Notes: generated by a model not told the origin, from the sequence alone. 64,000 nt of DNA from Planctomycetota bacterium (GCA_965223505.1 CBDCWP010000038.1:64001-128000); one strand, 5' to 3'; shown: positions 44,828 to 64,000, counted from the first letter of the stretch. Translations and numbers: made by a program.

Positions 44828-45545
44828 GGGACGGCGCCCCGATCTCGAAGGTGACAGCGTGGTCGTCGCGGCGAAGCAGCGTCAGAAGGGCGTGCAGGAA
44901 CACGACCAGCCCGATCATCTCGAGCGTCTCCTCGGCGGTGACGAACAGACCGTACCCGAGGTTGTGAATCCCGTGCGCTTCGACGTGCCGGCCCTCGAAG
45001 AGCTCGACGCCCAGCGCCCCGCCCAGGTACAGCAGGGCGGCGAGCAGGAACTGATTGCGCGTGCGCCGCGGCAGATGGCGCAGGAACCGCAAGAACGCCA
45101 CACCGACGCCGAGCACGACGGCGAACCCGACGACGACCCAGGCGTAGTGCAAGAGCCCGCCGACGCCGAGCGCGCCTCGCAGCGGCTCGATGAGCAGCTC
45201 GTGGAACGAGGCGGCCTCGTCGAGCGCCATCAGCAGGAAGCCCAGCGCCAGCACGAGCCAGTGCCTGGCGAAGCGGTCCATGGAGCTGCGCCGCATCGCG
45301 GCGATGACGGCGAGCGCCGCGGCGTTGAGCAGTAGCAGCAGTGTGGCGAAGAACGTCGCGGGGCCACTTTCCGTGTCCATGTAGAACTTCGGGATCAGGC
45401 CGAAGCCCCAATCGTGCTCGGTGAGGTGCATGAGCAGCGCGCTCGCGAGACCGGCCACGAACAGCAGCAGGACGCACGCGCTCAACCAGCGCGTGACGCG
45501 GCGCGGATCCAGTCGAACCGGCGATGAGCTCGGGGATCGGCCCAT
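44817..45545 (-). CDS. Hypothetical multi-pass membrane protein
   Basis: About 6 TM segments; E....TFF, LDE..SFHE, EETLEMIG motifs; overlaps the GNAT start. Confidence 0.72.
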   Translation of the reverse strand: MGRSPSSSPVRLDPRRVTRWLSACVLLLFVAGLASALLMHLTEHDWGFGLIPKFYMDTESGPATFFATLLLLLNAAALAVIAAMRRSSMDRFARHWLVLALGFLLMALDEAASFHELLIEPLRGALGVGGLLHYAWVVVGFAVVLGVGVAFLRFLRHLPRRTRNQFLLAALLYLGGALGVELFEGRHVEAHGIHNLGYGLFVTAEETLEMIGLVVFLHALLTLLRRDDHAVTFEIGAPSRES

Positions 45546-45630
45546 GTCTACCCCATCGGCGTGATCGGCCCGGGGATGAATGACACGGTTGGGAGTTAGG
45601 GTTCGCTCCGCATCGATCCGATGATGGAGC

Positions 45631-46773
45631 GTGATGGCCGAGCCGATGCTCATCGACGGTCTCGAGATCGTCTGCGTGGACGACGTGGACGGGCTCGACC
45701 AACGCACCGAAGCCTGGGACGCGTTGGCGTCGCGGCAGGGACCGTGCATTCCCATGTTCGGCCACGCCTGGATCTCCATGCTCTTCCGCATCTACGCCGG
45801 GCCCGACGACCGGTGGTTCGTGCTCTTCTGCTACGACGCCGGCGAGCTGGTCGGCGTGATGCCGATCTGGATGGTCCCCCACCGCGTCTTCGGCGCTTCG
45901 CGCCCGCGCGCGCGGGTTCCGTGCGACTACCAGACGTCGGAAGGCGACGTGTTGCTCGAGCGCGACCGCGCTTCGCGGGTCCTACGCGCGTTGATCGCCG
46001 GTCTTCGGACGCAGGAGCCGAACGTGTGGCGGCTCGAGCTCGGCTGCGTGCGCGACGACAGTCCGACCCACGACGTCCTGTCCGCGTTCGCCGCCGTGAC
46101 GCAACCCGACGGCCGGGGATCCCGCATTCCGATTCACGGCGAACTGGACACGTGGGCGGCGTCTCTCAGCAAGAGCCTGCGTCGCGACATTCGGCGTGGC
46201 GAGAACAAGATCGCGCGCGAGGGCGTCGAGGCGACGTTCGAGTTCCTCGCGGGCGCCGACGCCGACCCCACGTTCCTCGACGAGGTGATGAGGATCGAGG
46301 CGTCGGGGTGGAAAGGCAAGCAGGGCCTGCCGATGTCCTCGGACCCGGTGAACACGGAAAAGCACCGCTACCTCGCGTCGAAGTTCGCCGAGCGGGGACA
46401 GCTCGAGTGGCACGCGTTGCGGCTCGACGGCGCCGTCGCCGCCGTACACTTCGCCGTCCGCATGGGTGAGAGTCTCATGCTGCTCAAGCAGGCGTACGAC
46501 GACGCGTTCTCGAAGTACCACGTCGGCCATCTGCTCTTGAAGCGGGCCGTCGAGCGTGAGTACGAGCGCGGCGAAGGCCACGAGCTCAATCTGGTGACCG
46601 ACTGGGCCTGGTGCCGGCGCTGGAACATGTCGGTGCATCCGTATCAGCGCGCCTCGATCTATCCCGGCCGCCCGCTCGCACGCCTCGCGCACGCAGCGCG
46701 CTCCGGACTGCGGCGCATGGTCGGGCAGGTGCCGGGCGTACGCCGGTTGCGGCAGCGAACGCAGCCGGACTGA
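45631..46773 (+). CDS. GNAT family protein (CelD/BcsL-like)
   Basis: Same motif set as 43706-44827 (IEASGWKG, EWHALRLDG, ELNLVTDW.WCRRW). Confidence 0.75.
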   Translation: MMAEPMLIDGLEIVCVDDVDGLDQRTEAWDALASRQGPCIPMFGHAWISMLFRIYAGPDDRWFVLFCYDAGELVGVMPIWMVPHRVFGASRPRARVPCDYQTSEGDVLLERDRASRVLRALIAGLRTQEPNVWRLELGCVRDDSPTHDVLSAFAAVTQPDGRGSRIPIHGELDTWAASLSKSLRRDIRRGENKIAREGVEATFEFLAGADADPTFLDEVMRIEASGWKGKQGLPMSSDPVNTEKHRYLASKFAERGQLEWHALRLDGAVAAVHFAVRMGESLMLLKQAYDDAFSKYHVGHLLLKRAVEREYERGEGHELNLVTDWAWCRRWNMSVHPYQRASIYPGRPLARLAHAARSGLRRMVGQVPGVRRLRQRTQPD

Positions 46774-46834
46774 GCCGCTCGACGAAACGCATCCCGGTGT
46801 TCAGAGGATCGCGTTTCCCCTACCCTCGGCGGCC

Positions 46835-47584
46835 ATGGGGACCGCGGAGACCATCGACGAGGTCATCGAGCAGCTGACGGCGATCATCGATCGGTGCGTC
46901 GAGGACGAGCTGCGGCTCGGCTACTTTGCGGCGCTCTACCGGAAGGTCACCGTCGAGGTCAAGACGGGGATCGCGGAGGGCTTCTTCGACGACGGCGCCC
47001 GCATGGAGCGGCTCGACGTCATCTTCGCGAACCGCTACCTGACCGCCTACGACGCGCACCGTGCCGGTAGGCCGACGACAGAGGCATGGGCGTACGCGTT
47101 CGAGATCGCCGATCAGTGGTGGCCGATCGTGCTGCAACACCTGCTGCTCGGCATGAACGCGCACATCAACCTCGACCTGGGCGTCGCTGCGGCGAAGACG
47201 GTGCCCGCAGACGAGCTGCCCAACCTGCACGGCGACTTCAACAGGATCAACGACATCCTGAGCCGCCTGGTCGCCGAGGTGAAGGAAGAGCTCGCCGAGA
47301 TCTGGTGGACGCTACGGCTCTTCAACCGGTACCTGGGGAGCGTCGAAGACGCGATCATCAACTTCAGCATGACCAACGCGCGGGACGCGGCATGGGACGT
47401 GGCACTGCGGCTCGCGCCGATGGACGACGAAGAGCGGGGCGTGGCGATCGCCGCTCTGGACGCCGACGTAAGGCGCTTCGGGCGCGTCATTCGCCATCCG
47501 GGCGTCCTCGCGAGCACCGTCCTGAAGACGGTCCGGCTCGGCGAGCGAGGCTCGGTGCGGAGGAAGATCGAGATCCTCTCCTGA
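46835..47584 (+). CDS. Conserved hypothetical protein (DUF5995-like)
   Basis: GYFAALY..VT, LDVIFANRY, HLLLGMNAHINLDL, DFNRIN. Confidence 0.7.
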   Translation: MGTAETIDEVIEQLTAIIDRCVEDELRLGYFAALYRKVTVEVKTGIAEGFFDDGARMERLDVIFANRYLTAYDAHRAGRPTTEAWAYAFEIADQWWPIVLQHLLLGMNAHINLDLGVAAAKTVPADELPNLHGDFNRINDILSRLVAEVKEELAEIWWTLRLFNRYLGSVEDAIINFSMTNARDAAWDVALRLAPMDDEERGVAIAALDADVRRFGRVIRHPGVLASTVLKTVRLGERGSVRRKIEILS

Positions 47585-47588
47585 CGAA

Positions 47589-49427
47589 CTATGCCGGCGC
47601 CGGCGTGGGGTCGGACTCGTTCTTCCGCTCTTCGACCTGCGCCTTGTCGAGGTCCTTGCCGCTCTCGAGCCTGAGCAGGCGGTCGAGCGAGAACGGGCCG
47701 GAACCGCGCCAGACGATCATGCAGAGGGTGAAGAACACGAAGAACGTGAACTGGAACCCGAGGTTGGTCGTCAACAGGCCGCCCTCGGCGCCCGCGCCGA
47801 ACACGTGCACGCCGACCGCACCGAGCATCACGAGGGCGTTCAACCCCGCGGCGATGCGGGTCACGAAGCCCAGCGCGAGCGCAAGCCCGCCGACGACGTG
47901 CGCGAACACGACGCCCCACGACATGAACGTCGTCCACGTCTCCATCTCCTCGCCCTGCGGCAAGCTGGACTCGAGCGTGTTCATGTCGGTGATGAAGGCC
48001 ATGCCCTTGATGAAGAGGGCGATGCCCAGATAGACGCGCAGCAGGTCGATGGGTCGAACGTGCTTGAGACCCGGGATGAGCGGCTTGCGTGTCGGCTTGG
48101 CGGCCATCGCCTCGCGGCGGCGCGCCATGGCTTTCGCGTGCTCTTCCTTCGCCACCGCTTCCTGCTCCGGCGTGAACCGGACGAGCCACGCGAAGAAGGA
48201 GAAGCCGAGCACCAGGAAGCCCAGAATCATCAGGAACGTCGGCCGGTGCGGCTCCCACTTGAGCAGGAACCCGGCCGCGACCGCGCCCATGTTCCCTCCG
48301 GCGCCGACGATCCCCGCGACGGCGCCCAACGCCTTCTTGTTGATGAACGGCACGACCGAGTACGTCGCGCCCTCAGACATCTGCACGAACAAGCTGAACA
48401 GGATCATCGTCGGGATCGCGAGGGCCAGCACCTCCATCCGGGAGAAGAGCAGCAGGGCGATGCCCTCGATGAACAGCGCGATGAACAGCCAGCGCACGCG
48501 GCCCTTGAGTCCGCCCTTCTGCACGAACTTGTCACTGATGTACCCGCCGAGCGTGCGCGCGAAGATGTTCATCAAGCCGAAGAGGCCGGCCACGAGACCG
48601 GCCGTGGCGATGCCGAGCCCGAAGTAGTCGGCGTAGTACAGCGCCGCGATGTTGTTGATCGTGAGCTCGATGCCGAAACAGGCCGCATAGATGAAGAACA
48701 GCGCCCAGACGCGCTTGTCCTTGACGGCCAGCATGAAGGACCCCTTGGTCTTCTTCCGGGGTTCGAGCTCGCCGCTGGCGCGCAGCTCTTTGAAGTTGCC
48801 GTTCGGCAGGTCGGTCGTGAAGAAGAAGTAGCAGAGGCCCACGATGAAGCAGACGGCGCCGGCGACGACCATCGAGAGGCGCCAGCTCCAAAAGTCGCCG
48901 AAACCCATCGCGAGGAAACCGGCGAGCAGCAGCGGCATGACCATCTGCGTGACGCCGCCACCGAGGTTACCCCAGCCGGCGGAGGTCGCATTGGCCGTTC
49001 CGACGACGTTCGGCGCGAACATCACCGACGTGTGATACTGCGTGATGACGAACGACGCTCCGATGACGCCGATGCCGAGCCGGAAGATCATCAACGCCTC
49101 GTAGCTCTGCGCGAAGCCGATGCTCATGACGGGAATGGACCCGAAAATCAGCAGCCCCGTGTAGCAGAGGCGCGGCCCGATCTTGTCGCAGAGCCACCCG
49201 ATGAAGAGCCGGGCGATGATCGTGATGGCGACCGAGGCAATGATGAGGTTGGCCACCTGCTGGTCATCGAGCTTCAACTCGTCGCGCACGACCTTCATGA
49301 GCGGCGCGATGCCGAACCAGGCGAAGAAGCACAGGAAGAACGCGAACCAGCTCATGTGGAAGGCGCGCATCGGCCGCGTCTTCAAGCTGAGCAGATTGAT
49401 CCTGGTGGCCTTGTTCTGGACTTCCAT
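47589..49427 (-). CDS. NRT2/NarK-family nitrate/nitrite MFS transporter fused to a C-terminal DoxX domain
   Basis: MRAFHMSW..FF.CF..WF, nitrate signature ANATSAGWGNLGGG, FGIELT, ARTLGG; after a charged linker LLRVYLG..F..KG, GG..L.LGFVTRIAA, GSGPFSLD. Confidence 0.85.
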   Translation of the reverse strand: MEVQNKATRINLLSLKTRPMRAFHMSWFAFFLCFFAWFGIAPLMKVVRDELKLDDQQVANLIIASVAITIIARLFIGWLCDKIGPRLCYTGLLIFGSIPVMSIGFAQSYEALMIFRLGIGVIGASFVITQYHTSVMFAPNVVGTANATSAGWGNLGGGVTQMVMPLLLAGFLAMGFGDFWSWRLSMVVAGAVCFIVGLCYFFFTTDLPNGNFKELRASGELEPRKKTKGSFMLAVKDKRVWALFFIYAACFGIELTINNIAALYYADYFGLGIATAGLVAGLFGLMNIFARTLGGYISDKFVQKGGLKGRVRWLFIALFIEGIALLLFSRMEVLALAIPTMILFSLFVQMSEGATYSVVPFINKKALGAVAGIVGAGGNMGAVAAGFLLKWEPHRPTFLMILGFLVLGFSFFAWLVRFTPEQEAVAKEEHAKAMARRREAMAAKPTRKPLIPGLKHVRPIDLLRVYLGIALFIKGMAFITDMNTLESSLPQGEEMETWTTFMSWGVVFAHVVGGLALALGFVTRIAAGLNALVMLGAVGVHVFGAGAEGGLLTTNLGFQFTFFVFFTLCMIVWRGSGPFSLDRLLRLESGKDLDKAQVEERKNESDPTPAPA

Positions 49428-49486
49428 GACGCCTCTCCGGGTTACGCCCTACGAGGCTCCGCTATGCGCCCGGCCCGCTACGGCGG

Positions 49487-50716
49487 CTAGGCGTGATAGT
49501 GAAGACTCTCGCCGAGATACGGATCGCCCTCCGGAACAGGCTTGGCGTTCCCCAGTCCGCGCAGGAAGAACCAAGTGAACCCGGCGAGCAGCGCGGCGAG
49601 CGGGGCGATCCCCCACAGCACCGACACGAAGTGGTCACCGACCAGCGGCGGCGCGACCATCAGATGCAGGTCGAGCCAGCGACCGGCCAGCAGCAGTACC
49701 GCGACACGCAGCATCGTCGTGCGATTGCGCTTGGCGGGTCGCGGGAGCAGCAACAGGAACGGGATGAGCCAGTTGACGCCGACGTTGATTACCATCCACG
49801 GGCCCCACGTCGCGTTCATGCGCGGGACGTAGTAGGTCGTCTCCTCGGGGATGTTGCTGTACCAGATGAGCATGTACTGGCAGAACCAGATGTACGCCCA
49901 GAAGGTGGCGAACCCGAGCATGAGCTTGCCGAGGTCGTGAAGATGGTCGTCGCGCAGAATGCCGCGCAGCGGTCCGGCGCGCTCCAGCAGGATCGCGATC
50001 ACCGCGATCGCGGCCAGCGACGACAAGAACAGGCTCGAGAAGTTGTAGACCGCGTATACGGTGCTGTACCAGTGCGGCTCCAGCGACATGACCCAGTCGA
50101 ACGCAGCGAACGAGTACGTCAGCGCGAACACGACCAGGAACCCGCAGGACAGCTTCACGGCGCGGCCGTGCAGCGCGTGTTCGCCCGGCTTGTCGTCCTG
50201 CCGGCGCGAGACGCCGCGCAGCATCCAGGCGAACGCGATCCAGATCCCGAGGAACAGGACGGAGCGCACTAGCACGCCCGCAACCGACAGCCATCCGCTC
50301 TTGTGTTGCAGCAACGGATCGCTCTCGACCGCCTCGGTGTGGGTCCACTCGTAGGCGCCGAGCGTGATGAGCAGGATGACGAACACGCAGGCCGCCGTGT
50401 AGGGCAGGGTCGTGGCCAACGCCTCCGGTACACGCCGGATCGCGACGCTCCAGCCGGCGCGGGTGACGAACCCGAACACCAGGAACAGGAGCCCGCCGAG
50501 CGACAGGCCGAGGGCGTACTGGCCCGCGACGATGAGCCCGGCCCAGCCCGCCTCCGTGTCGATGAAACAGCCCCCGAGGGTCACGACCACGGCGACGGCA
50601 GCGACGACGATCAATCGCTGGGTCAGCGCGCCGTCGATCAGTCGCGGTCCCGCGGAAGCGGGCTCGACTACTGCTTCGGCTTCTGCAGCGTGCGAATGTA
50701 GCGAATCACCTTCCAT
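49487..50716 (-). CDS. actF: Alternative complex III subunit ActF (NrfD-like membrane subunit)
   Basis: AGWSVAIRRVPEA, DWVMSLEPHWYSTVY, HLHDLGKLM..F..FWAY..FCQYMLIWYSNIPEE; start uncertain (overlaps actE by 49 nt). Confidence 0.88.
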   Translation of the reverse strand: MEGDSLHSHAAEAEAVVEPASAGPRLIDGALTQRLIVVAAVAVVVTLGGCFIDTEAGWAGLIVAGQYALGLSLGGLLFLVFGFVTRAGWSVAIRRVPEALATTLPYTAACVFVILLITLGAYEWTHTEAVESDPLLQHKSGWLSVAGVLVRSVLFLGIWIAFAWMLRGVSRRQDDKPGEHALHGRAVKLSCGFLVVFALTYSFAAFDWVMSLEPHWYSTVYAVYNFSSLFLSSLAAIAVIAILLERAGPLRGILRDDHLHDLGKLMLGFATFWAYIWFCQYMLIWYSNIPEETTYYVPRMNATWGPWMVINVGVNWLIPFLLLLPRPAKRNRTTMLRVAVLLLAGRWLDLHLMVAPPLVGDHFVSVLWGIAPLAALLAGFTWFFLRGLGNAKPVPEGDPYLGESLHYHA

Positions 50717-51312
50717 CGGTCGTCTCTCGTTACCTGGTTTGCGTGCGAGGCCATGTCGCCCTTGCCGACCGTGATGACGCGGTACATCTGTCCGTCGCTC
50801 ATCTTGATCAGCGCGGGATCGGTCAACACCGGCGGCGGGCGCATGCCGCGCCGGCTGACGGGTGTGTTGGCGGCGCCGAACTGTCCGTGGCACGTCGCGC
50901 AGACGTTCATCCAGACCTGCCTGCCGCGCGTAAGGTGCGCGGCCTGCGCCGCCTCGGTCAGCTCGTCGAAGTTCCACGACGGCTTGTAGGCGTTCCAGCG
51001 CGCCTGCTCTTCCGGCGGAAGCTTGACCCACTCGCCGGCGGGCCGGCTCTCGTCGATGTTCAGAAGGCCGTCCCCCTGGTGCATCGGCAGGAACCCGCGC
51101 GCCACCGTGCCCTCGACCGGCCGGCGCAGCGTGCGCCCGTCGTCGAAGAGCGGATTGACGTCCTGCGACTCGAAGCCGGGGTTCTCGCCCATGTTGTGCA
51201 TGAACTCGAGATTGCGCTTGCCGTAGTCCGGCTCGGCGAACAGATGCAGGCCGATGCCGACCGCGATCAGGAGCACCAACAGCCCCTCGAACGGATGGAG
51301 GCCCTTGATCAT
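50668..51312 (-). CDS. actE: Alternative complex III subunit ActE (monoheme cytochrome c)
   Basis: PVEGTVARG, CATCHG, DG..Y..IT.G.G.M, DRWKVI.YIRTLQ; N-terminal TM. Confidence 0.88.
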   Translation of the reverse strand: MIKGLHPFEGLLVLLIAVGIGLHLFAEPDYGKRNLEFMHNMGENPGFESQDVNPLFDDGRTLRRPVEGTVARGFLPMHQGDGLLNIDESRPAGEWVKLPPEEQARWNAYKPSWNFDELTEAAQAAHLTRGRQVWMNVCATCHGQFGAANTPVSRRGMRPPPVLTDPALIKMSDGQMYRVITVGKGDMASHANQVTRDDRWKVIRYIRTLQKPKQ

Positions 51313-51832
51313 GCGTCCTCCTCCACGTAGTCGGTCACCGACTCGGCCCCGTGGTGCGTGAGCAGCTCGCGCGCGTCGTCGACGGTGCGCTGCGCGCCCT
51401 CGAGGCGCAGCAGCAGCACGAAGCGGTCGTCCGTGACGGCGATCTCGGGCTGCTTGCCGCGCTTGCCGGGCCACAGCCCGCAACGCATGAACAACGCAAG
51501 GACCACACCGAGGCCGGCGAACAGCACCGTGATCTCGAACGCGATCGGAATGAACGCCGGAAGCGAGTTGAACGGCTTGCCGCCGACGTTGAGCGGCCAG
51601 TCCACCGACGACGTCCAGAACTGGAAGTAGAGGATCAGCGCCGCGCCGAGCAGGCCGGCGAGAAAGCACACCCAGGTCAAGCGGGACGAGCGGATGCCCA
51701 TCGCCTTCTCGATCCCGTGAATCGCGTAGGGCGAGTAGACGTCGACGATCGAGTACGACCCGTCGCGCGCCGCGCGCGTGGCATCGAGCACGCTCGCCTC
51801 GGACGCGAAGACGCCGTGGACCATGCGAGCGC

Positions 51833-51836
<4 letters not shown>
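51309..51836 (-). CDS. actD: Alternative complex III subunit ActD (DUF3341)
   Basis: [40 protein letters not shown]. Confidence 0.9.
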
Positions 51837-53186
<1,350 letters not shown>

Positions 53187-53194
<8 letters not shown>

Positions 53195-56177
53195 GCTTCT
53201 CTCCTTCGCCCGTGTCGGGCTTGTCCGCGACACGCGTCAAGTACGCGACCGAGGGTTTCACACCGATCTCTCCCAGGGCCTGCGCGGCGCGAGGTGACTT
53301 CATCTGCGCGGTCACGGAGCTCTTCGGGTCGTTGGTGTTTCCGAAGACGATCGCGTCGGCCGGACAGGCCTGCATGCACGCGGTCTGGATGTCGCCGTCG
53401 CGCAGGCCGCGTCCCTCCCGCTTGGCCGTCGCCTTGGCCTCCTGGATGCGCTGGATGCAGAAGGTGCACTTCTCCATCACGCCGCGCGACCGGACGGTCA
53501 CGTCCGGGTTCAACACCATGTTCTGCAGCCGGTCCTCGCGCGGATAGTCGAACCAGTTGAAGCGGCGGACCTTGTACGGACAGTTGTTCGAGCAATACCG
53601 CGTCCCGACGCAGCGGTTGTAGACCTGTTGGTTGAGGCCTTCCGAGCCGTGCACCGTCGCCAGCACCGGACACACGGTCTCGCAGGGCGCGTGATCACAC
53701 TGCTGGCACATCATCGGCTGGTGAATCGTCTCGAGCTCGTCGCCCTCGCCCTGGAAGTAGCGGTCGATGCGGAGCCAGTGCATCTCGCGCTGACGGCGCA
53801 CCTCGTCCTTCCCCACGACCGGGATGTTGTTCTCGGCCTGGCACGCGATGACGCACGAGGCGCAGCCGGTGCAGGCCGACAGATCGATCGCCAGCCCCCA
53901 GTGGTTGCCCTTGTACGGGTGGTCCTCTTCCCACAGCTCGTCGAACGCATGCGGGTGCGGTACACCCGATGACGGATCTTCCCGATAGGCCGACAGCGTC
54001 GTGTGCGACGCGACGTTGCGGCGCTGCTTGCCGTCGGGCGCGAGATGCGCCGGAACGTCGAGCGAGTGATAGAGCTGCGTGCGGGCGAGCCGCGCCGTCA
54101 GCCCCGTCTTCTTGATCGCGACGACGGCGGCGCCAGCCAAGGGCGCCGCGTTCACGCCCACGATTCCGTTCGGCTCGACCGTCGGCGTCGCTTCGATCCA
54201 GTCGGGCCCGACGTCGTGGAACCGTCCCGTGCCCTGGCGTCCGTATCCCAACGCGACGGCGACCGTGTCGTCGGCCTGTCCGACCTGAACGAGCGCGGGC
54301 AGCGAGACCGCGACGGCGCCGTCCGCCTCGAGCTTGACGATGTCGCCGTCTTCGACCCCGAGCCGCTTCGCCGTCGCCGGCGAAAGGCAAGCGTAGTTGT
54401 CCCAGGAGACCTTCGAGACGGGGTCCGGAAGCTCCTGCAGCCAGGGATTGTGCGCGTGCCGCCCGTCGGTCATCGCGACTTTGGGATAGAGCACGAGATC
54501 GAGACGCTTCTGCTCGTCGGGCTTCCATGCCGCCGGCGATTCGAGCGCGCCCGCGTCGAACGATCGCGACGAGGCTTCCACCTGGTACCGGCAGAATCCG
54601 TCGTGCAGCGACTGGTTCCAGAACACGTCGAACGACGTCGGTTCCAATACGTTCGGGAAGATCGCCGTCTTCCAGACCGCGCGCATGATCGCGCGATCGT
54701 CGCGATCGTCGCCGCTCCACTTCGCCAGACTCTCGACGACCGCACGCGTCTGACCCAACGGCGCGATCGTCGGCTGACTGACGGTGATCGTTCCCTTGAC
54801 CGGCTCCGCGTCGCCCCAGGCCTCCAGCGGATGGTGGTCGGGGCAGACGTAGTGGGCGACCGACGCGGTCTCATCGACGCGCTCGGCGAAGCTCACGACG
54901 AGGTCGACCTGCGCGATGCCCTCGCGCAGCGTCTCGGCATCCGGAAGGTCGAAGAGCGGGTTACAACCCGCGATGAAGAGTGCGCCGACCTCGCCGGCCG
55001 CCAGCTCGTCGCGCAGCGCCGCGAGCGCGCGGTCGTCGCCGGTCCGCTGTAGGGACGGACGATCGAGATCGATGACGCGCTGCTTGTTCGACGCGTCGTC
55101 CGCGCCCAACAGGTGGTTGAGATACGCGGCGATGCGCTGTGTGTTCGCGTCGTCGACGTCGCAGACGACGACCGCGCTGCCTGCGGGTGCGGTCGCGAGG
55201 CGCTCGGCGACCTCGTCGAGCAGTGCGGGGTCGGTCTTCGGCGCCGGGCCCTGCGCCCACGGCGCCTTCGTGCCCTTGCGGCCCGCGACGCGTTCGGCGA
55301 GCGCCGAGACTACCAGCGGCAGATCGCGCGGCGCCGTGACGACGCGCCGGTCGGCGTTCGTCCCCGTCAACGACACGCGCGACTCGAACTGCACGTGGTG
55401 GCAGAAGGCGGTCGCACCGGCATCGAGGTTCCGCGCGGCCTGCCATCCGCGGGTGTGGTCCACCGGTGCGACCCAAGTTCCCAGGAAGTCCGCGTCGACG
55501 GACACGATCACGCGCGCGTTCTCGAGCCGGAAGCGCGGCAGCATGCGCTCGCCGTAGAGCGCCTCGTACGCGTCGAGCATCGCCGAGCTGGAGAGCGCGT
55601 CGTAGCTGACGTGCTTGCTGTCGTCGAACCCGCCGAGGAAACGCTCGATCGTCGCGCGCGCGGTCACGCCGTTCACCGTGCCGCTGAGGAACCGAACGCG
55701 CTTGCCGGCGCGCTTGATCTCGCCGAGCTTCTGCTTGATGGCGCCGTCGACGGCGTCCCACGTTCCCGGATTGCCCTTCACCAGGGGTTGCTTCAGCCGT
55801 TGGCCGTCATAGAGCGACAGAATGGAGGCCTGGCCGACGGCGCACGTGCTGCCCTTCCCGCCGGCGAACGGATGCAGGCTGTTGCCCTCGATCTTGATCG
55901 GCCGGCCGTCCCGGACCTTCGCGACGACGCCGCAGGCGGCGGGACACGCGCCGCACTGGGTCGCGTAGTACGCGGACGTTCCCGGCGTCACCTCTTCCGG
56001 CTTGTCGTGGAAGGGCACGATGTCGTGCTCTTCGCCGCGCGAGCAGCCCGGCAGCACGGCGACGCCGAACGAGAATCCGGCGAGCTTCAAGAACGCGCGA
56101 CGGGACGGCGAGAGACCCGCGAGCAGCGGGATGCCCTCCTCGTCGAGCCGGATGGCTTGTGTGTCGTGTTCCGACAT
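53187..56177 (-). CDS. actB: Alternative complex III subunit ActB (Tat-exported; molybdopterin-enzyme-like plus Fe-S domain)
   Basis: SRRAFLK Tat motif then [23 protein letters not shown]; Fe-S motifs [44 protein letters not shown]. Confidence 0.93.
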
Positions 56178-56186
56178 GTCGGCGTC

Positions 56187-56840
56187 CTAGTAGTGGCACG
56201 CGGCGCAATCGAGCGACGCGTTCACCTGTTTCCCTGCGACGCCGTTCTCGTTGACGTCGCGATGGCAGTTCACACACCAGCCCATGCGCAGCGTTTCGTG
56301 CTGGTGCATGCGCTCCATGTTCCGCACCTCCCCGTGGCACGTCTCGCAGCTGACATCGGCGTTCACGTGCACGCTGTGGTTGAAGTAGACGAAGTCGGGA
56401 AGCCGATGGACCTGCTTCCACTTGATGGCGCTGGCCGGCGTCGATTCGTCCGGATTGAGGTTCTCGTCCAGGCCCTGCGCCTCGTAGAGCCTCCGCAGCT
56501 GCTCGGAGACCAGATGACGCACCGGGCGTCCCTGCGCCTTTGCGTCCTCTTCTTCGGCGCGCATCGCGCCGAACGACGTCCGCACGATCTTGTGGCAGTT
56601 CATGCAGATGTCGGTCGACGGCACGGCGGCGTGACGTCCCCGCTCCGCCGAGAAGTGGCAGTAGAGGCAGGGAATCTCGAGCTCACCTGCGTGCAGGCGG
56701 TGCGAGTAGTCGATCGGCTGCTGCGGGCTGTAGCCCTGGTTGTTGCCCGGAAACCGGGTCTCGGCGAGACGCGGCCACAGTGTCAAGTAGACGACCGCGA
56801 CGGCGACGACCAGGAACGTGATGCGCGTGTGTCTCGGCAT
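56187..56840 (-). CDS. actA: Alternative complex III subunit ActA (pentaheme cytochrome c)
   Basis: N-terminal TM, QPIDYSH..HAG, five CxxCH (CLYCH, CMNCH, CETCH, CVNCH, CAACH), LPDFVYFNHS.H, MGWC. Confidence 0.93.
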   Translation of the reverse strand: MPRHTRITFLVVAVAVVYLTLWPRLAETRFPGNNQGYSPQQPIDYSHRLHAGELEIPCLYCHFSAERGRHAAVPSTDICMNCHKIVRTSFGAMRAEEEDAKAQGRPVRHLVSEQLRRLYEAQGLDENLNPDESTPASAIKWKQVHRLPDFVYFNHSVHVNADVSCETCHGEVRNMERMHQHETLRMGWCVNCHRDVNENGVAGKQVNASLDCAACHY

Positions 56841-56853
56841 GTTGGTTTCCCCG

Positions 56854-58509
56854 TTAGCAGGGAATCTCTGCGTTCTTCCTCGCGTAGAACCACCAGTTGA
56901 CGACCAGGCACGAGAGGTAGTAGACGGCGAAGCCGTACAAGGCGTACTCAGGCGTGCCGGCCTTGATCTGCGTCGCGAAGATCTTCGGAATCAAGAAGGC
57001 GCCGTACGCCGCGACGGCCGACGTCCAACCCAGGACGGGGCCGGCTTGATCCTTCGGGAAGATGATCGGGATCATCCGGAACGTGGATCCGTTCCCGACA
57101 CCCGTCGTCGCGAAGAGCAAGATGAACAGAAGCAGGAACGGAACGAAGTACTCCTCCGGGGTGTGAGAAGCGTTCGCCTGCGAGACGAAATACCCGGCGC
57201 CGATGGTGGCGCCGATCATGATGACCGTGTCCCACTGCGTGACCTTCGCGCCGCCCCACTTGTCGGAGAGCCAACCGCCCAAGGGGCGAATCAGCGCGCC
57301 GACGCCCGCGCCGATCCAGATGTACAGAGCGGTCTTCGGCGCGGCCGGGTTGCCGACCGCCTCGGCGAGCACGCTGCCGTCCTCACCCACTCGAATGAAG
57401 CCGAAGACGTCGTCGATCAGCTTGGGGAAGGCGTTGGCGTAGCCGATGAACGACCCGAAGGTCATCGTGTAGAGCCACGTCATGACCCAGTTGTGCTTGT
57501 TGCGGAAGATCGCGAACTGCCCGCGCAGGTTCTCCTGTGTCGCCTTCTGCGTCAGATAGCGCATCGAGAGCAACGTGACGCAGACGCAGACGACGAGGAT
57601 CATGAAGATCTTGAGCAGGACCGGGAAACCGCCCCACGGCGTGATCAGCAGCACGACTCCGACGGTGGCGCCGACGTAGCCGAGCGTCGTCAGCCACAGG
57701 TACTTGCCGATCGCGGCGGACGTCGAGCCGTACTTGTGCTGCGGCAGGTTGTTCATGCCGAAGAAGGCCAGCACGCCGAAGAACGCCAGGATCGGCACCC
57801 AGACGAGTCCCGCGTTCTGAATCCACAGCTCATGATGAACGACTTCGGTCGTTCCCTCGGGCGTGGTCGTCCAGGTGTACGGGGCGCCGCCCAGGCCGCC
57901 GAACGCCCCGAACGTGATGATCCACGGCAGCAGGAACTGCATCACGCTCACGCCGAGATTGCCGAGGCCGGCGTTCAGCCCGAGCGAGAGCCCCTGCATG
58001 CGCTTCGGGAAGAAGAAGCTGATGTTCGACATGGAGGACGCGAACGCGCCGCCGCCGACGCCGGAGAGCGCGGCGAGCACGACGAGCGTCAGGAACGAGA
58101 CGTTCGGATCCTGCAGCGCGACGCCCGCGCCGACCGCCGGGATCAACAGCAACGCGGTCGTCATGAACTTGACGTTGCGCCCGCCGCAGATCGCGATCAT
58201 GAACGAGTTGGGGATTCGCAACGTCGCCCCGGCCAGGCCGGCGACGGCGGGCAGCGTGAACATGAGCGCGCGGTAGCCGTCGCCGTCGTACGACTGCCCG
58301 TCGTTCATGAACGTGAAGTCGAACAGGCTCTTGTCGGCGAAGTGCACCTTCTGGATGAACTTCGCGACCATTCCCCAGTACAGCCAGACCGCGAACCCGC
58401 AAAGCAGGTTGGGAATCGAGATCCACAGGTTCCGGTTGGCGATCTTCTTGCCTTCGCCTTCCCAGAACTGCTCGTCCTCGACGTCCCAGCGCTCGAGCTG
58501 TCTACTCAT
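56854..58509 (-). CDS. narK: Nitrate/nitrite transporter, NarK/NarU (NarK2) type
   Basis: W..ED..FW..G..IA.RNLWIS, GGG.FASSMSNISFFFPK..QG..LGLNAGLGNLG, TFGSFIG, GNGSTFRMIP. Confidence 0.93.
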   Translation of the reverse strand: MSRQLERWDVEDEQFWEGEGKKIANRNLWISIPNLLCGFAVWLYWGMVAKFIQKVHFADKSLFDFTFMNDGQSYDGDGYRALMFTLPAVAGLAGATLRIPNSFMIAICGGRNVKFMTTALLLIPAVGAGVALQDPNVSFLTLVVLAALSGVGGGAFASSMSNISFFFPKRMQGLSLGLNAGLGNLGVSVMQFLLPWIITFGAFGGLGGAPYTWTTTPEGTTEVVHHELWIQNAGLVWVPILAFFGVLAFFGMNNLPQHKYGSTSAAIGKYLWLTTLGYVGATVGVVLLITPWGGFPVLLKIFMILVVCVCVTLLSMRYLTQKATQENLRGQFAIFRNKHNWVMTWLYTMTFGSFIGYANAFPKLIDDVFGFIRVGEDGSVLAEAVGNPAAPKTALYIWIGAGVGALIRPLGGWLSDKWGGAKVTQWDTVIMIGATIGAGYFVSQANASHTPEEYFVPFLLLFILLFATTGVGNGSTFRMIPIIFPKDQAGPVLGWTSAVAAYGAFLIPKIFATQIKAGTPEYALYGFAVYYLSCLVVNWWFYARKNAEIPC

Positions 58510-59245
58510 CGGCGCCCTCGCTGTTCGGGGCCGTCGGCAGCACGCGCTGCGTTCGACGCTCGTAGTTCCAGCGCACGACCTGCGTCTTGCGCCAGAGGTA
58601 CATGTTCGGGATGACCAGCACGTGCACGAGCCGCGTGAACGGGAAGAAGGCGATGAGCACGAAGTTGCCGACGATGTGCCACTTCACGAGCGCCGGCATC
58701 GGCGTCACGTAGGAGATGTCGGGGTTGAGCTTGACCAGCGACCAGAGATAGGGCGACAGGGTCGACGCGAACCAGGACGATCCCCAGTTGTAGGTGACGG
58801 CGATCGCGATGCCCGTTCCGATCTGCCCGAGAAGCATGAGGTACAGGATCCAGTCGGCGGGGCTGGTCACGATGCGCGCGCGCGACGAGCGCATGCGCCG
58901 AATGATGATGTTCACCATGCCGATGACGGTCAGGACGGCCGCGATCAGCGCTGTCACCTCGAGGATGATCAAGCGCAGCGGGTCGCCGTTCCACCAGAGG
59001 ATGGAACGCGGAATCAGGAACGCGACGACGTGTCCGAGCAGCACGAACAGCAGGCCGTAGTGAAACGGGACGAGCGCCCAGAAGTGGCGGTCGTTCTCCA
59101 GGAACTGGGACGAGAGGCTCGAGTACGTGAACGCCCGTTGGCGGTACCGCTGGATCGTCACCACGAAGAACAGGATCATCGCGACGTACGGGAACACCGC
59201 GTAGAGCAGGGTGTCGAGGTAACCGAATTCAGAGCTTCCGGGCAT
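58502..59245 (-). CDS. narI: Respiratory nitrate reductase gamma subunit (diheme cytochrome b)
   Basis: FPY, SSQFLE, FHYG.....LGH, WH.......FPFTRLVH (four heme His); GGAGG SD. Confidence 0.93.
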   Translation of the reverse strand: MPGSSEFGYLDTLLYAVFPYVAMILFFVVTIQRYRQRAFTYSSLSSQFLENDRHFWALVPFHYGLLFVLLGHVVAFLIPRSILWWNGDPLRLIILEVTALIAAVLTVIGMVNIIIRRMRSSRARIVTSPADWILYLMLLGQIGTGIAIAVTYNWGSSWFASTLSPYLWSLVKLNPDISYVTPMPALVKWHIVGNFVLIAFFPFTRLVHVLVIPNMYLWRKTQVVRWNYERRTQRVLPTAPNSEGADE

Positions 59246-59875
59246 GGTCCACCTCCACGCCGTCCGTGTACGCCTTGGGCGGGTACTGGGGCGGCAGCGC
59301 GCACGAGGAGCCGCACTCGTAGGGCTCCGCCTGCGTCGCGGGAACGTCGACGGCTTCGACCTGCGTCTCGCCGTATTCCGCTTCGAGCGCCGTAAGCAGG
59401 TCGCGCAGCACCTGCCGGTACGGACTGTCCTTGTCATCGAAACCGGCGTTCATCTTGAAGAGCGCCGGCTGGACGTAGGTCGTGCTGAAGAGGCCCGCCT
59501 TGCCTTCCGGCAGGCGTCCGAGGACGCGCAGGCCGGCGGTGAGGTGGTCGGGCAGTTCCGTGCCTTCCTCGACACCGAGCGCTCGCAGGAGCTGGCGCAT
59601 CTCGACCAACATCGCGCCGCGCGCGTAGTCCTCGCCGTACAGGTGCCAGCCCATCTCGAGCGAGCAGACCGGATTGATGTCGAACGTACGCGTGTAGTGC
59701 TCTTCGGCATCTTCCGGCGTGCTGTCGTTCAGGAACACGCTCAGCGCCAACGCGCCCTCGCCGGGGAACTCGTCGTCGCGAGCGATCAGGTCGCATGCTC
59801 GGATCAAGCCGCACGTGCGATCGGCGTCCGGATAGCGCAGGATCTCCGCCACCGCGTCGAGAACGTCGCGCTTCA

Positions 59876-59876
<1 letters not shown>
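59229..59876 (-). CDS. narJ: Nitrate reductase Mo-cofactor assembly chaperone
   Basis: LRYP, EEHYTRTFD, YGEDYARG, ELPDHL. Confidence 0.9.
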
Positions 59877-61366
<1,490 letters not shown>

Positions 61367-61386
61367 GTGCCCTATTCCTCTCTCTC

Positions 61387-64000
61387 TCACCACATGAGCC
61401 GGGGCAGCTTGCGCACGTAGACGTGCGTGTCGCGGTTGCACCCGGTGGGGCCCCAGTAGTTGAAGTGGAATGTGAACTGCCCGTAGCCGCCGACCATCAA
61501 GTTCGGCTTCAGACGCGTACGCGTCAGACTGTTGTGCCCACCGGCGCGCCGGTTCTTGCGCAGCGGGGAGCGCGGAACGCCGTAGGTGCGTTCCGGCGAG
61601 TGGTAGATGATGCAGATGCCGCGCGGAATGCGCGCGGAGACCGCGGAACGCGTGACGACGACGCCGTGGTCGTTGTGGACCTCGACCCAGTCGTTGTCGT
61701 CGATGCCGAGGTGCTCGGCGTCCTTGTCGTTCATCCAGAACGGCTCGCAGCCGCGGGACAGCGTCGTCATGCGCTCGTTGTCGCCGTACGTGGAGTGGAT
61801 GTGCCACTTGCCGTGCGGCGTGAGGTAGTTGAGCATCAGCGTAGGGCCGACCTCCTCACTCACGCGCAGGTCCGCGTACTCCGTCGGGAGCGGCTTCGGC
61901 TTGTACGTCGGTAGGTGCTCGCCGAACTGGATGTAGCCCGGATGATCCAGATACAGATGCTGGCGTCCGGTCAAGGTGCGGAACGGAACCAGCGTGTCCT
62001 TCTGGAAGGTGAACGGCGCGTAGGGCCGGCCGTCGTTGATGAGCCCCGACCACATCGGGCTGTTGATGAAGCGCTGGGGGCGCGCCTGGATGGTCTCGAA
62101 GTCGCACCGCACCGCACGCGTGTCCTCGGCCAGGTGCGTGAGCGGAATCCCCGTCTTCTTCTCGAGGTTCTTGTACGAGCGGAAGGCCAGCTCGCCGTTG
62201 GTCACCGTCGCGAGGTTGAGTACGGCGTTGCAGGCCTGCTTCGCGTCCTTGATGGACGGATAGGTGCTGCCGCCCCAGTGCTCGACCGGCCAGGTCGCGA
62301 CCATCTCGTCGTAGAAGTCCTCGCACATGTAGTGCGTGCCGTGGGCCCCGAGGCCACCGGAGCGCACGTTCGGACCGAGCGAGATGTACTGGTTGTAGAG
62401 GTTCTTGTAGTCGCGCGTGACGACCTTGAGGCCGGGCATGGTCTTGCCGGGAATCGCATCGACCTCGCCGTCGATCCACTCCTTCATGTCGGTCTGCGCG
62501 ATCTCGGCCGGCGTGTCATGCGCGAGCGGCGCCGCGACGATGTCCTTCACGGGCTCGGGGAAGTGGCGCTCGGCGAGCTCAGAGAACCGCTTCGCGATCG
62601 CCTTGAAGATGTCCCAGTCGCTCTTCGACTCCCAGCACGGCGGCACCGCGGGCGCCAGCGGGTGAATGAACGAGTGCATGTCCGTCGAGTTGAGATCGGC
62701 CTTCTCGTACCAGGTGGCCGCCGGCAGGACGATGTCGGAGTAGAGCGCCGACGTGTCCATGCGGAAGTTCAGGTCGACGACGAGGTCCATCTTCCCCTGC
62801 GGCGCGATCTTGTGCCACGCGACCTCCTTGATGGAGTCCTCGGCGATCGGCGTCGCGATGTCGTTGTGGTGCGTTCCGAGGTAGTGCTTGAGGAAGTACT
62901 CGTGTCCTTTGCTGGACGACATGAGCGCGTTGCCGCGCCAGATGTACCAGACGCGGGGCCAGTTCTCGGGCGCGTCCGGATCCTCGACGGAGAACTTCAT
63001 GTCGCGGTTCTTGAGCTGCTCGATGACGTGCTTGACGACGCCCTTCTCGTCTTTCGCGCCCGCCTCTTCGGCCTCCTTGACGAGGTCGATGGGGTTCTTC
63101 TCGAACTGCGGGTAGAAGGGCAGCCAGCCGTTGCGCACGGCGCGCACCTGCGCGTCGATCGTGTGGCCCTTCGCGAGACTGTTCTCGGGCTGCACCTGCG
63201 GCACGGTGTGGTAGTCGGTGAACTCCTTCTCGTAGCGCCACTGGTCGGTGTTCACGTAGTGCCATGACGGTGCGTTCTGAAGCCGCACGGCCGGATACCA
63301 GTCCTTGCCGAACGCGATCGAGCCCCACGACTCGCCGGGCGCGAGCTTCTCCTGGCCGACGTAGTGGGCCAAGCCGCCGCCGTTCGTCCCGACGCATCCG
63401 CAGAAGAGCAGCGCGTGGATGCCCGCGCGGTACATGAGATTGGCGTGGTACCAGTGGTTGATGCCCGCGCCGATGATGATGGTGCACTTGCCGCCGGTGT
63501 GCTCGGCGGTGCTCCCCCACTCGCGCGCGAACTGGATGAGGTCCTTGCGGCCGATGCCGGTGTACTTCTCGGACCACGCCGGGGAGTACGGCGCGTTCTC
63601 GTCGTCGTAGCTGGTGGGGTAGTCGCCCTCGAGCCCGCGCGGTACGCCGTACTGAGCCATCATGAGGTCGTAGACGGTCGCGACCTTCACGGTCGACCCG
63701 TCTGCCAGCGTGATGTGCTTGACGGGCACGCCGCGCAGGAGCGGACGCGCGTCGGCGAAGTCGTCCAGCTCCACCGACATCTGCTCGTCTTCCTGGCCGA
63801 GCAGCGTCAGCGCCGGGTCGATGTCCTCGCCGCTCTCCGGGTCCTTGAAGAGCAGGTTCCAGCTGCCGTTCTCCTCGCCCCAGCGGTGTCCGGACGAACC
63901 GCCGGGCATGCGCGCGTCCCTGGACAGCTCGTCCCAGATGAGGAACTTCCAGTCGCCGTTCTCGCTCTTCCCGTAGCGCTCCGTACGGCCGGCGCGCAGC
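61387..64000 (-). CDS. narG: Nitrate reductase / nitrite oxidoreductase alpha subunit (5' part outside window)
   Basis: [87 protein letters not shown]. Confidence 0.96.

Follow-up and report, generated by a model that had tools for sequence, protein, structure and literature searches.

An Alternative Complex III encoded inside a nitrate reductase operon of a Planctomycetota bacterium: a candidate respiratory module with a dihaem cytochrome c

Textbooks present the membrane-bound nitrate reductase NarGHI as a quinol:nitrate oxidoreductase that suffices by itself (2 H+ per 2 e-), and Alternative Complex III (ACIII) as a partner of oxygen reductases. Here we analysed a stretch of 64,000 nucleotides from a Planctomycetota bacterium (hereafter the window; G000:C38:64001-128000), in which the genes of both enzymes are arranged in one operon. 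The source assembly comprises 5.15 Mb on 44 contigs with 68% GC and is 92% complete. An earlier interpretation made from the nucleotide sequence alone, the sequence-only reading, had proposed that the operon encodes a dedicated anaerobic ACIII.

Parts of this arrangement have been described before. The operon narCGHJIKT of Thermus thermophilus, a mobile unit, begins with the gene of a dihaem, membrane-bound periplasmic cytochrome c, followed by narGHJI and genes of NarK-type transporters, and the review PMC7694296 describes this cytochrome, NarC, as a fourth Nar subunit, bound to NarI, through which electrons pass between Nar and its partners in the periplasm. The resulting heterotetramer NarCGHI belongs to the nitrate respiration conjugative element. 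Unlike the locus studied here, the Thermus operon contains no ACIII; the NADH dehydrogenase Nrc, whose genes adjoin nar, serves as the dedicated partner. Modules of the quinol:cytochrome type encoded with a nitrate reductase, for which a gain in energy conservation was proposed, are likewise on record: haloarchaeal nar operons contain narB (Rieske) and narC (cytochrome b) together with pNarGH (PMC2483277), and Thermogutta terrifontis carries bc1 genes beside narGHI (PMC5673643). These modules are, however, Rieske/cytochrome b complexes and not ACIII, and the haloarchaeal Nar differs further in its outward-facing active site and in the absence of NarI. The oxidase-linked ACIII of Flavobacterium johnsoniae (6BTM), Rhodothermus marinus (6F0K), Roseiflexus (6LOD) and Chloroflexus (8K9E) shares with the nar-type complex its six subunits in the same order, a pentahaem ActA, a monohaem ActE and an ActB exported by twin-arginine translocation (Tat). 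In contrast, the nar-type complex is encoded inside a nar operon and not before SCO1/cox genes, forms a separate ActC group and carries a four-cysteine site in ActB, which the solved ActB lack.

The gene arrangement itself has appeared in print. PMC10732223 (2023) reported 13 instances from Planctomycetota and KSB1 metagenome-assembled genomes (MAGs) of nar upstream of genes for a 5-haem cytochrome, a Mo-oxidoreductase-4Fe4S protein, NrfD, actD, ccoP and ccoII, a cluster which its authors could match to no described complex, suggesting instead a new nitrite reductase resembling NrfAH, or else a component of the respiratory chain. This is evidently the same arrangement, but it is not recognised there as ACIII, and narC, the paralogy with oxidase-linked ACIII and the phylogeny go unmentioned. 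No characterised Nar-ACIII system was found in the open full-text literature, while subscription papers on ACIII gene contexts may mention such clusters. The earlier statement that no characterised example is known therefore stands as far as characterisation goes, and has to be amended in that the cluster was already published (PMC10732223). We conclude that this is a genuine, intact and widespread module, so far uncharacterised, which assembles known parts in a variant way and whose gene arrangement had been noticed before.

Open reading frame (ORF) listing combined with Pfam and NCBIfam scans, for which 18 kb past the window end were also read, revealed the minus-strand series narC-narGHJI-narK-actABCDEF-narK::doxX. 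Start codons were picked by ribosome-binding sites, and the junction lengths rest on these starts: narG and narH are separated by 20 nt, narH and narJ overlap in the ATGA manner, narJ/narI and narI/narK overlap by 17 and 8 nt, gaps of 13 and 9 nt follow at narK/actA and actA/actB, actB/actC overlap by 8 nt, actC/actD and actD/actE by 4 nt each, actE overlaps actF, whose start codon is uncertain, and 59 nt separate actF from narK::doxX. Gene order, strand, identities and spacing (gaps of at most 20 nt, and 59 nt before the last gene) had been given correctly by the sequence-only reading, as had the position of the act block between two nitrate/nitrite transporters, two NarK-family genes being confirmed in the operon. 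Its observation that no haem-copper oxidase follows the act block also held, because a convergent DUF5995 gene (46835..47584, plus strand; PF19458, 259 bits) ends 4 nt from the last stop codon and closes the operon. Across positions 45000-64000, a promoter scan returned 0 promoter-like sites, and a terminator scan gave 16 terminator-like matches compared to 8.2 +/- 3.5 in shuffles, all within coding sequence and none at the narK/actA junction, though an internal promoter may still exist. Logan contigs spanned the narK/actA/actB junction without differences (X1 record 7, 54377-57244; X2 record 13, 56160-57241), with the caveat that these runs may be the source sample and not independent support. 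The DNA runs carrying this sequence come from a single study, and no RNA run was listed among the carriers. What the sequence-only reading had missed is the dihaem cytochrome c gene upstream of narG, a part that changes the likely electron wiring.

This gene, narC, is located outside the window at L001:3031-3978 (minus strand, window-equivalent 65031-65978), in the flanking 18 kb that also hold the 5' part of narG, and lies directly 5' of narG, overlapping its start. The protein has a length of 297-315 residues, the annotated start (297 residues) being a GTG at L001:3924, and begins with a stretch resembling a signal sequence, carries two CxxCH motifs and ends in a hydrophobic helix (residues 260-278) that is predicted to anchor it in the membrane. 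Among its homologues, 120 of which are named only 'cytochrome c', both CxxCH motifs and two Met are invariant. The first haem domain resembles residues 51-144 of the 444-residue F. johnsoniae ActA chain 6btm_A (E = 7e-9). A membrane-anchored dihaem c-type cytochrome, predicted to be periplasmic, as the product of the first gene of a nar operon corresponds to the Thermus-type layout; the likeness to Thermus NarC concerns gene place, two haems and anchor. The Thermus genome used as a control lacks NarI. Directly before the narC ribosome-binding site (L001:3925-3990, minus strand), there are two copies of the octamer GTGCACGG, spaced by about 19 nt, and this pair may be a regulator site.

The NarG/NarH/NarI set shows equivalog-level similarity to the respiratory membrane nitrate reductase NarGHI. 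Full-length NarG comprises 1232 residues, and the 3' 870 codons inside the window (61387..64000; this and all following operon genes on the minus strand) gave 951 bits with TIGR01580 on 870/1232 residues (cut-off 1084 for the whole protein). Its first 1028 residues scored 1048 bits to E. coli NarG (1q16_A) versus 87 bits to NxrA of the periplasmic nitrite oxidoreductase (NXR) 7b04, and a twin-arginine motif (RRxFLK), looked for at the NarG N-terminus, was not present. NarG is of the E. coli type and, given the missing Tat signal and the nitrate/nitrite transporters in the operon, is predicted to face the cytoplasm. The iron-sulfur subunit NarH (496 residues, 59876..61366; TIGR01660 654.7 bits, cut-off 524) starts at 61366 behind the ribosome-binding site GGAATAGGG. 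It is followed by the assembly chaperone NarJ (215 residues, 59229..59876; PF02613, with TIGR00684 at 58.2 bits slightly below the cut-off of 59.35), the dihaem b membrane subunit NarI (247 residues, 58502..59245; PF02665 196 bits, TIGR00351 113.4 bits with a cut-off of 105.55), which is the single NarI of the source genome, and the nitrate/nitrite transporter NarK of the major facilitator superfamily (MFS; 551 residues, 56854..58509; TIGR00886 266 bits, NarU 255 bits).

The six genes behind narK show the gene set and order of ACIII, with a pentahaem ActA, a PF11821 ActD, a monohaem ActE and two NrfD-like subunits. ActA (217 residues, 56187..56840; PF14522) has an N-terminal anchor and five CxxCH motifs that are invariant in 27 nar-linked homologues. 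ActB (996 residues, 53187..56177; Pfam/NCBIfam matches, 6btm_B 515 bits with profile) consists of a MopB-like domain followed by a 4Fe-4S domain and carries a Tat signal (SRRAFLK). The NrfD-type quinol-binding membrane subunit ActC (453 residues, 51833..53194; PF03916) gave 507-647 bits to the solved ActC chains, among them 647 to 6btm_C and 607 to 6f0k_C. ActD (175 residues, 51309..51836) matched PF11821 with 180 bits, and the monohaem cytochrome c ActE (214 residues, 50668..51312; one CxxCH, PF13442) retains C138, C141 and H142 throughout 20 homologues. ActF, the second NrfD-like membrane subunit (about 409 residues, 49487..50716), gave no Pfam match and was recognised by 37% identity to the oxidase-linked ActF of the source genome, about nine hydrophobic segments and a position conserved across all related loci.

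In one respect the nar-linked ActB departs from the four solved complexes, whose MopB-like domain has no cofactor sites. ActB of this operon (ActB1) contains a CX2CX3C...C motif (C75, C78, C82, C112) that aligns with the FS0 cluster motif of arsenate reductase ArrA. The motif was present in 30/30 nar-linked, 12/38 oxidase-linked and 8/27 ActB of unknown context, in 0/4 solved ActB, and was missing from the second ActB of the source genome (ActB2). Judging by these alignments, the four-cysteine site is retained in nar-linked ACIII and is not exclusive to it, and through this site the unexplained iron-sulfur branch of the complex may reach a further docking point. As to a Mo ligand in ActB, the ArrA alignment covers the region, but the cofactor-less solved ActB carry identical residues there, so that nothing follows from it.

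PF11821 matched two places in the source genome. The second complex, ACIII-2 on C10, represents the textbook oxidase-linked form, in which actABCDEF is followed by SCO1, COX1, COX3, a COX2-cytochrome c and a UbiA-family (haem O synthase-like) gene, and its subunits share 31-57% identity with those of the nar-linked ACIII-1. A second, oxidase-linked ACIII and two Rieske/cytochrome b loci are thus present, and with ACIII-2 beside an A-type oxidase and these two loci, oxygen respiration is already supplied with complex III. Besides its own subunits, NarC is the only c-type cytochrome encoded with ACIII-1, whereas the other complex-III-type enzymes each lie beside their own acceptors. The nitric oxide (NO) reductase on C21 is the quinol-dependent qNOR (505 bits to 3ayf), and a second cbb3-like oxidase and a divergent haem-copper family member were detected on C34 and C31, respectively. 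No further N-oxide reductase dependent on cytochrome c was detected in this 92%-complete genome: NirS, NirK, a true NrfA and NosZ were not found in it. RuBisCO was likewise not found.

Several features of these respiratory loci were recorded alongside. On C30:133271-145393 (L100), a split Rieske complex of the cytochrome b6/subunit IV type is located beside a 1324-residue multihaem cytochrome c and a cbb3-like oxidase, which has a 682-residue fusion as its CcoO/CcoP-like subunit. On C24:30018-35488 (L103), a Rieske and a cytochrome b gene precede those of a 468-residue multihaem cytochrome resembling hydroxylamine oxidoreductase (HAO)/hydrazine dehydrogenase, an unknown 348-residue protein and a protein with weak similarity to cytochrome bd subunit I; the order is reminiscent of Rieske/b-HAO clusters in anammox bacteria, while the host is probably a non-anammox planctomycete. 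C13 carries an A-type cytochrome oxidase (CoxB; CtaD in a 919-residue open frame) at 150001-168000 (L098), a segment with 54.6% GC compared to 61.3% for the whole of C13 and about 68% for other contigs. The segment could belong to a foreign island, or the contig could be chimeric or have been mis-binned.

Analysis of related loci revealed that the linkage recurs across genomes and phyla. In a set of 80 ActB-sampled loci (one genome per GTDB species), actABCDEF is without exception preceded directly by co-oriented narGHJI in the six closest loci with enough flank (6/6); these loci derive from two Acidobacteriota MAGs, Candidatus Sulfotelmatobacter, Blastocatellia, a Planctomycetia MAG and a Candidatus Methylomirabilis MAG. 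In all five of them with a long enough flank narC precedes narG, the remaining one (L006) being cut within narG. Among the other 74 of the 80 loci, 39 have cox genes downstream and 35 neither nar nor cox in the available flank. ActA of the nar type (>170 bits) was found in 17 of the 40 nearest relatives, adjacent to nar on the same contig in 13, on separate small contigs in three and not preceded by nar in one (G037). In this last case (L110, G037:C267; ActA 45% identity), the upstream genes encode a 532-residue NapC/NirT-and-c554-like multihaem protein and a 1252-residue CCP/MauG-PKD protein.

Within a sample of 400 genomes of the window's phylum, 43 contain ActA at >=190 bits, and in 39 of them NarI is encoded on that strand at a distance of no more than 4 kb. 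For this phylum, the nearest named relative of ActC2 and several named NarC homologues point to Planctomycetota. Viewed from the Nar side, 56 of the same 400 genomes carry NarI, and act directly adjoins it in 45, after narI or narK; this count includes five loci with a more diverged ActA, detected only by fetching the loci. The rest comprise three loci split over contigs, five with narC...narK but without act, one with cytochrome b after narI and two left out of examination. In the five loci without act, no act gene occurs in the 6.4-7.8 kb after narK, and narC was seen in four of them. In a more distant nar operon (L141, G039:C14:40000-55696; NarI 40% identity), a gene for cytochrome b takes the place of ACIII immediately behind narI, and in this the operon resembles the haloarchaeal and Thermogutta loci. 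Elsewhere, in L007, L008 and L013, act stands directly after narI. Among 15 NarI-sampled loci on metagenome contigs, all seven that reach far enough continue into actA. Every nar-linked locus detected belongs to a MAG. With these synteny counts, chance adjacency and misassembly were rejected.

The genes 3' of actF in other loci code for a NarK-like MFS protein, a TehA/SLAC1-type channel, MoeA, MoaA, HemN and hemerythrin, and a qNOR-like gene lies 1.7 kb after actF in G015; the presence of such nitrate-respiration genes indicates that ACIII is embedded among them, which is more than mere abutment. Rrf2-family (NsrR-like) regulator genes are found beside the nar-act block in L007, L009, L013 and L111 (Acidobacteriota, Methylomirabilis and one relative), next to narC in the first three; the window operon has no adjacent Rrf2-family gene.

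Phylogenetic analysis further supported a common history of both parts. The ActC tree (86 rows; IQ-TREE quick mode, LG+G4) was computed after ten of 94 loci had been dropped for lack of a clean ActC high-scoring segment pair of >=85% coverage. All 17/17 nar-linked rows fall on one side of a branch with SH-aLRT support of 90 (16 of them at 97), with three phyla mixed and the Acidobacteriota and Methylomirabilis rows nested among the window's relatives, whereas ActC2 pairs with cox-linked Planctomycetaceae ActC at a support of 100. Similarity to ActB1 was the criterion for picking loci, which favours the nar-linked clade in the sample, while the nar label is independent of the ActC sequence. For the 24 loci holding both proteins, the NarH and ActC trees share their supported groups, and pairwise distances correlate with r = 0.84 (0/2000 permutations as high), a correlation that partly reflects shared host ancestry. 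The cross-phylum group seen in both trees points to transfer of the whole block; nar and act are inherited together and have moved between phyla as one unit. Of the proposed dedicated anaerobic ACIII, the dedicated part is hence substantiated by the separate oxidase-linked ACIII, the synteny and the ActC grouping, which mark ACIII-1 as a divergent, co-inherited paralogue; its electron route is still inferred.

We propose that the operon encodes one nitrate-respiration module, in which a cytoplasm-facing Nar with the periplasmic NarC as a fourth subunit would be combined with a dedicated ACIII. During nitrate respiration, ACIII would oxidise menaquinol at ActC on the periplasmic side, and ActA and ActE would carry the electrons to NarC, from where they would pass to the outer haem of NarI, cross the membrane and reach nitrate by way of NarH and NarG. 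Direct oxidation of quinol by NarI would take place in parallel to this route, which would add a second coupling site if ACIII pumps protons; with textbook potentials, the menaquinol-nitrate span of about 0.5 V leaves room for such a site. Where a genome has other periplasmic acceptors, NarC might alternatively pass electrons from ACIII or NarI on to these. Since NarC is the sole co-encoded c-type cytochrome, Thermus NarC acts as a bridge and Rieske/cytochrome b genes occur at nar loci elsewhere, coupling of ACIII to Nar via NarC appears to be the simplest reading. This corresponds, in modified form, to the option of the sequence-only reading in which electrons flow between ACIII and Nar via a periplasmic cytochrome, which fits best among its three. 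The whole chain from quinol through ACIII and NarC to NarIHG as an extra coupling site is, in our estimation, plausible at slightly less than an even chance. More tentatively, NarCGHI and the nar-type ACIII might form a respiratory supercomplex, with Nar working as a cytochrome c:nitrate oxidoreductase and the FS0-type cluster of ActB as an extra electron port, an extension we regard as rather unlikely.

A number of observations weigh against this proposal. NarI retains all four His aligned to the haem ligands of E. coli NarI (32/32 sequences), which we take to be H56, H66, H187 and H205, and has an Arg at the position of Lys86 (31/32), presumably the quinol-site basic residue, so that a basic residue is kept there. 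With haem ligands and quinol-site residue preserved, Nar does not need ACIII for its electrons, and narC-led nar operons without act, in loci of the phylum and in Thermus, indicate that NarC is not tied to ACIII; for these two reasons, a parallel branch of higher yield is proposed and not a replacement. Electron transfer from a c-type haem to the NarI haem, moreover, works against the membrane potential. NrfA is present in 12/16 nar-act relatives and could be the real acceptor there. Haem-copper oxidases occur in all relatives except one 57%-complete genome, so that ACIII-1 could serve a cbb3-type oxidase at low oxygen. Carriers without any haem-copper oxidase, which would force the route from ACIII to Nar, were sought among the relatives and none was found, as all 39 adequately complete ones have at least one. 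The absences reported for the source genome are soft, as it is 92% complete, and controls were silent for the nos_propeller PF18764 search and for the NirS search at 1e-10 over the relatives; NosZ was re-tested with TIGR04246, which did detect it in three non-carrier relatives. A complex prediction of ActA (25-217) and ActE (30-214) with NarC (44-262), run with alignments of our own, gave a score of 0.01 and constitutes no evidence either way.

It is possible, although we think it improbable, that ACIII-1 is co-regulated with nar yet, as the quinol:cytochrome c oxidoreductase of anaerobic or micro-oxic conditions, feeds other periplasmic or membrane acceptors employed alongside nitrate, such as NrfA, HAO-like multihaem nitrite reductases, cbb3-type oxidases or peroxidases, with no path into Nar. 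NrfA is somewhat more frequent in nar-act relatives (12/16) than in other relatives (12/24), and the source genome holds two cbb3-like oxidases and an HAO-like multihaem protein, but the C30 cbb3-like oxidase and the C24 HAO-like gene each stand beside their own Rieske/cytochrome b genes. NrfA, for its part, normally has its own quinol dehydrogenase, and the module is present although NrfA was not found in the source genome, G015, G026, G029 and G033. In Thermus, electrons leave through NarC towards Nir and Nor (PMC7694296), and ACIII has been proposed as a donor to periplasmic N-oxide reductases (PMC9270275; PMC5317091); NirS, NirK above the cut-off and NosZ, on the other hand, occur in none of the 16 nar-act relatives, NosZ being restricted to three non-carriers. 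Feeding of periplasmic nitrite, NO or N2O reductases, the first option of the sequence-only reading, is weakened accordingly, as NirS, NirK, NrfA and NosZ were not found in the source genome and its NO reductase is a qNOR. Nor would an ACIII serving other acceptors require the strict co-transfer of act with narC-narI across phyla.

Operation in the oxidising direction, with NarGHI-NarC as an NXR of the Nitrobacter type delivering electrons to cytochrome c and a reversed ACIII reducing quinone for NADH synthesis, is in our view very improbable. In its favour, NarG and the cytoplasm-facing NXR are close relatives, a Methylomirabilis MAG is among the carriers, the Nitrobacter cluster, working in reverse, resembles the Thermus one including a NarC homologue (PMC7694296), and ACIII is common in nitrite-oxidising Gallionellaceae (PMC10734462). 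The hosts are, however, varied, and RuBisCO was not found in the source genome. In addition, 12/16 nar-act relatives also carry NrfA for nitrite ammonification, and the neighbours in related loci, HemN, MoaA, MoeA and Rrf2-type regulators, belong to anaerobic nitrate respiration. The low score to NxrA of 7b04 (87 bits versus 1048 for E. coli NarG) points the same way and covers the periplasmic NXR only, not the Nitrobacter type. The relay of electrons from nitrite oxidation, which the sequence-only reading had listed as a third option, consequently receives little support. Hardly more probable is that the six-gene block is itself a periplasmic reductase, in which the MopB-like domain of ActB with its FS0 site would bind a cofactor and reduce, for example, nitrite, an idea taken from PMC10732223. 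The FS0 motif, invariant in 30/30 nar-linked ActB, aligned with ArrA and missing from four solved ACIII, would fit this, as would the finding that ActB1, unlike ActB2, still scores on PF04879 and PF00384. The remainder of the domain, though, reached 458-515 bits to cofactor-less ActB versus <=99 bits to any molybdoenzyme, and ActB yielded no indication of a retained active site; as 12/38 oxidase-linked ActB keep the four cysteines too, the motif is not nar-specific.

Most Nar loci in the 400 genomes sampled from one phylum are of the Nar-ACIII form, which Acidobacteriota and Methylomirabilota also carry, and the existence of such a unit implies that nitrate reduction in the environment makes use of an electron route not studied so far. 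An additional coupling site at ACIII, if there is one, would set the growth yields and the competitiveness of these nitrate reducers apart from the values of model organisms, which would bear on the balance between nitrite release, ammonification and denitrification in soils and sediments. Should the supercomplex with a proton-pumping ACIII exist, the charge moved per electron would be about doubled relative to the textbook NarGHI, and ACIII would be a general anaerobic coupling site in what would then be the prevailing nitrate respiration of Planctomycetota and several other menaquinone-using phyla. The module further offers a defined setting for two questions, namely whether ACIII pumps protons and what purpose its dead-end iron-sulfur wire has.

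Between positions 39914 and 43015 (minus strand) of the window, a FIST-domain sensor and a hybrid histidine kinase/response regulator are encoded about 5 kb from the operon end, with GNAT-like genes in between. The operon is flanked by two DUF5995 paralogues, at 46835-47584 of the window and at L001:4033-5085, both on the plus strand and thus opposite to the operon; DUF5995 on both sides was seen only in the source genome and not beside the module in other loci. The last operon gene (47589..49427, minus strand) encodes a NarK-family transporter of 612 residues (TIGR00886, 304 bits) with a C-terminal DoxX domain (PF07681 at residues 462-538). As a fixed member of the module this fusion was rejected, since it is missing downstream of actF in relatives, though it recurs upstream of narC in the metagenome contig L122 with 68% identity over residues 1-589, and L105 carries a stand-alone DoxX gene upstream of narC.

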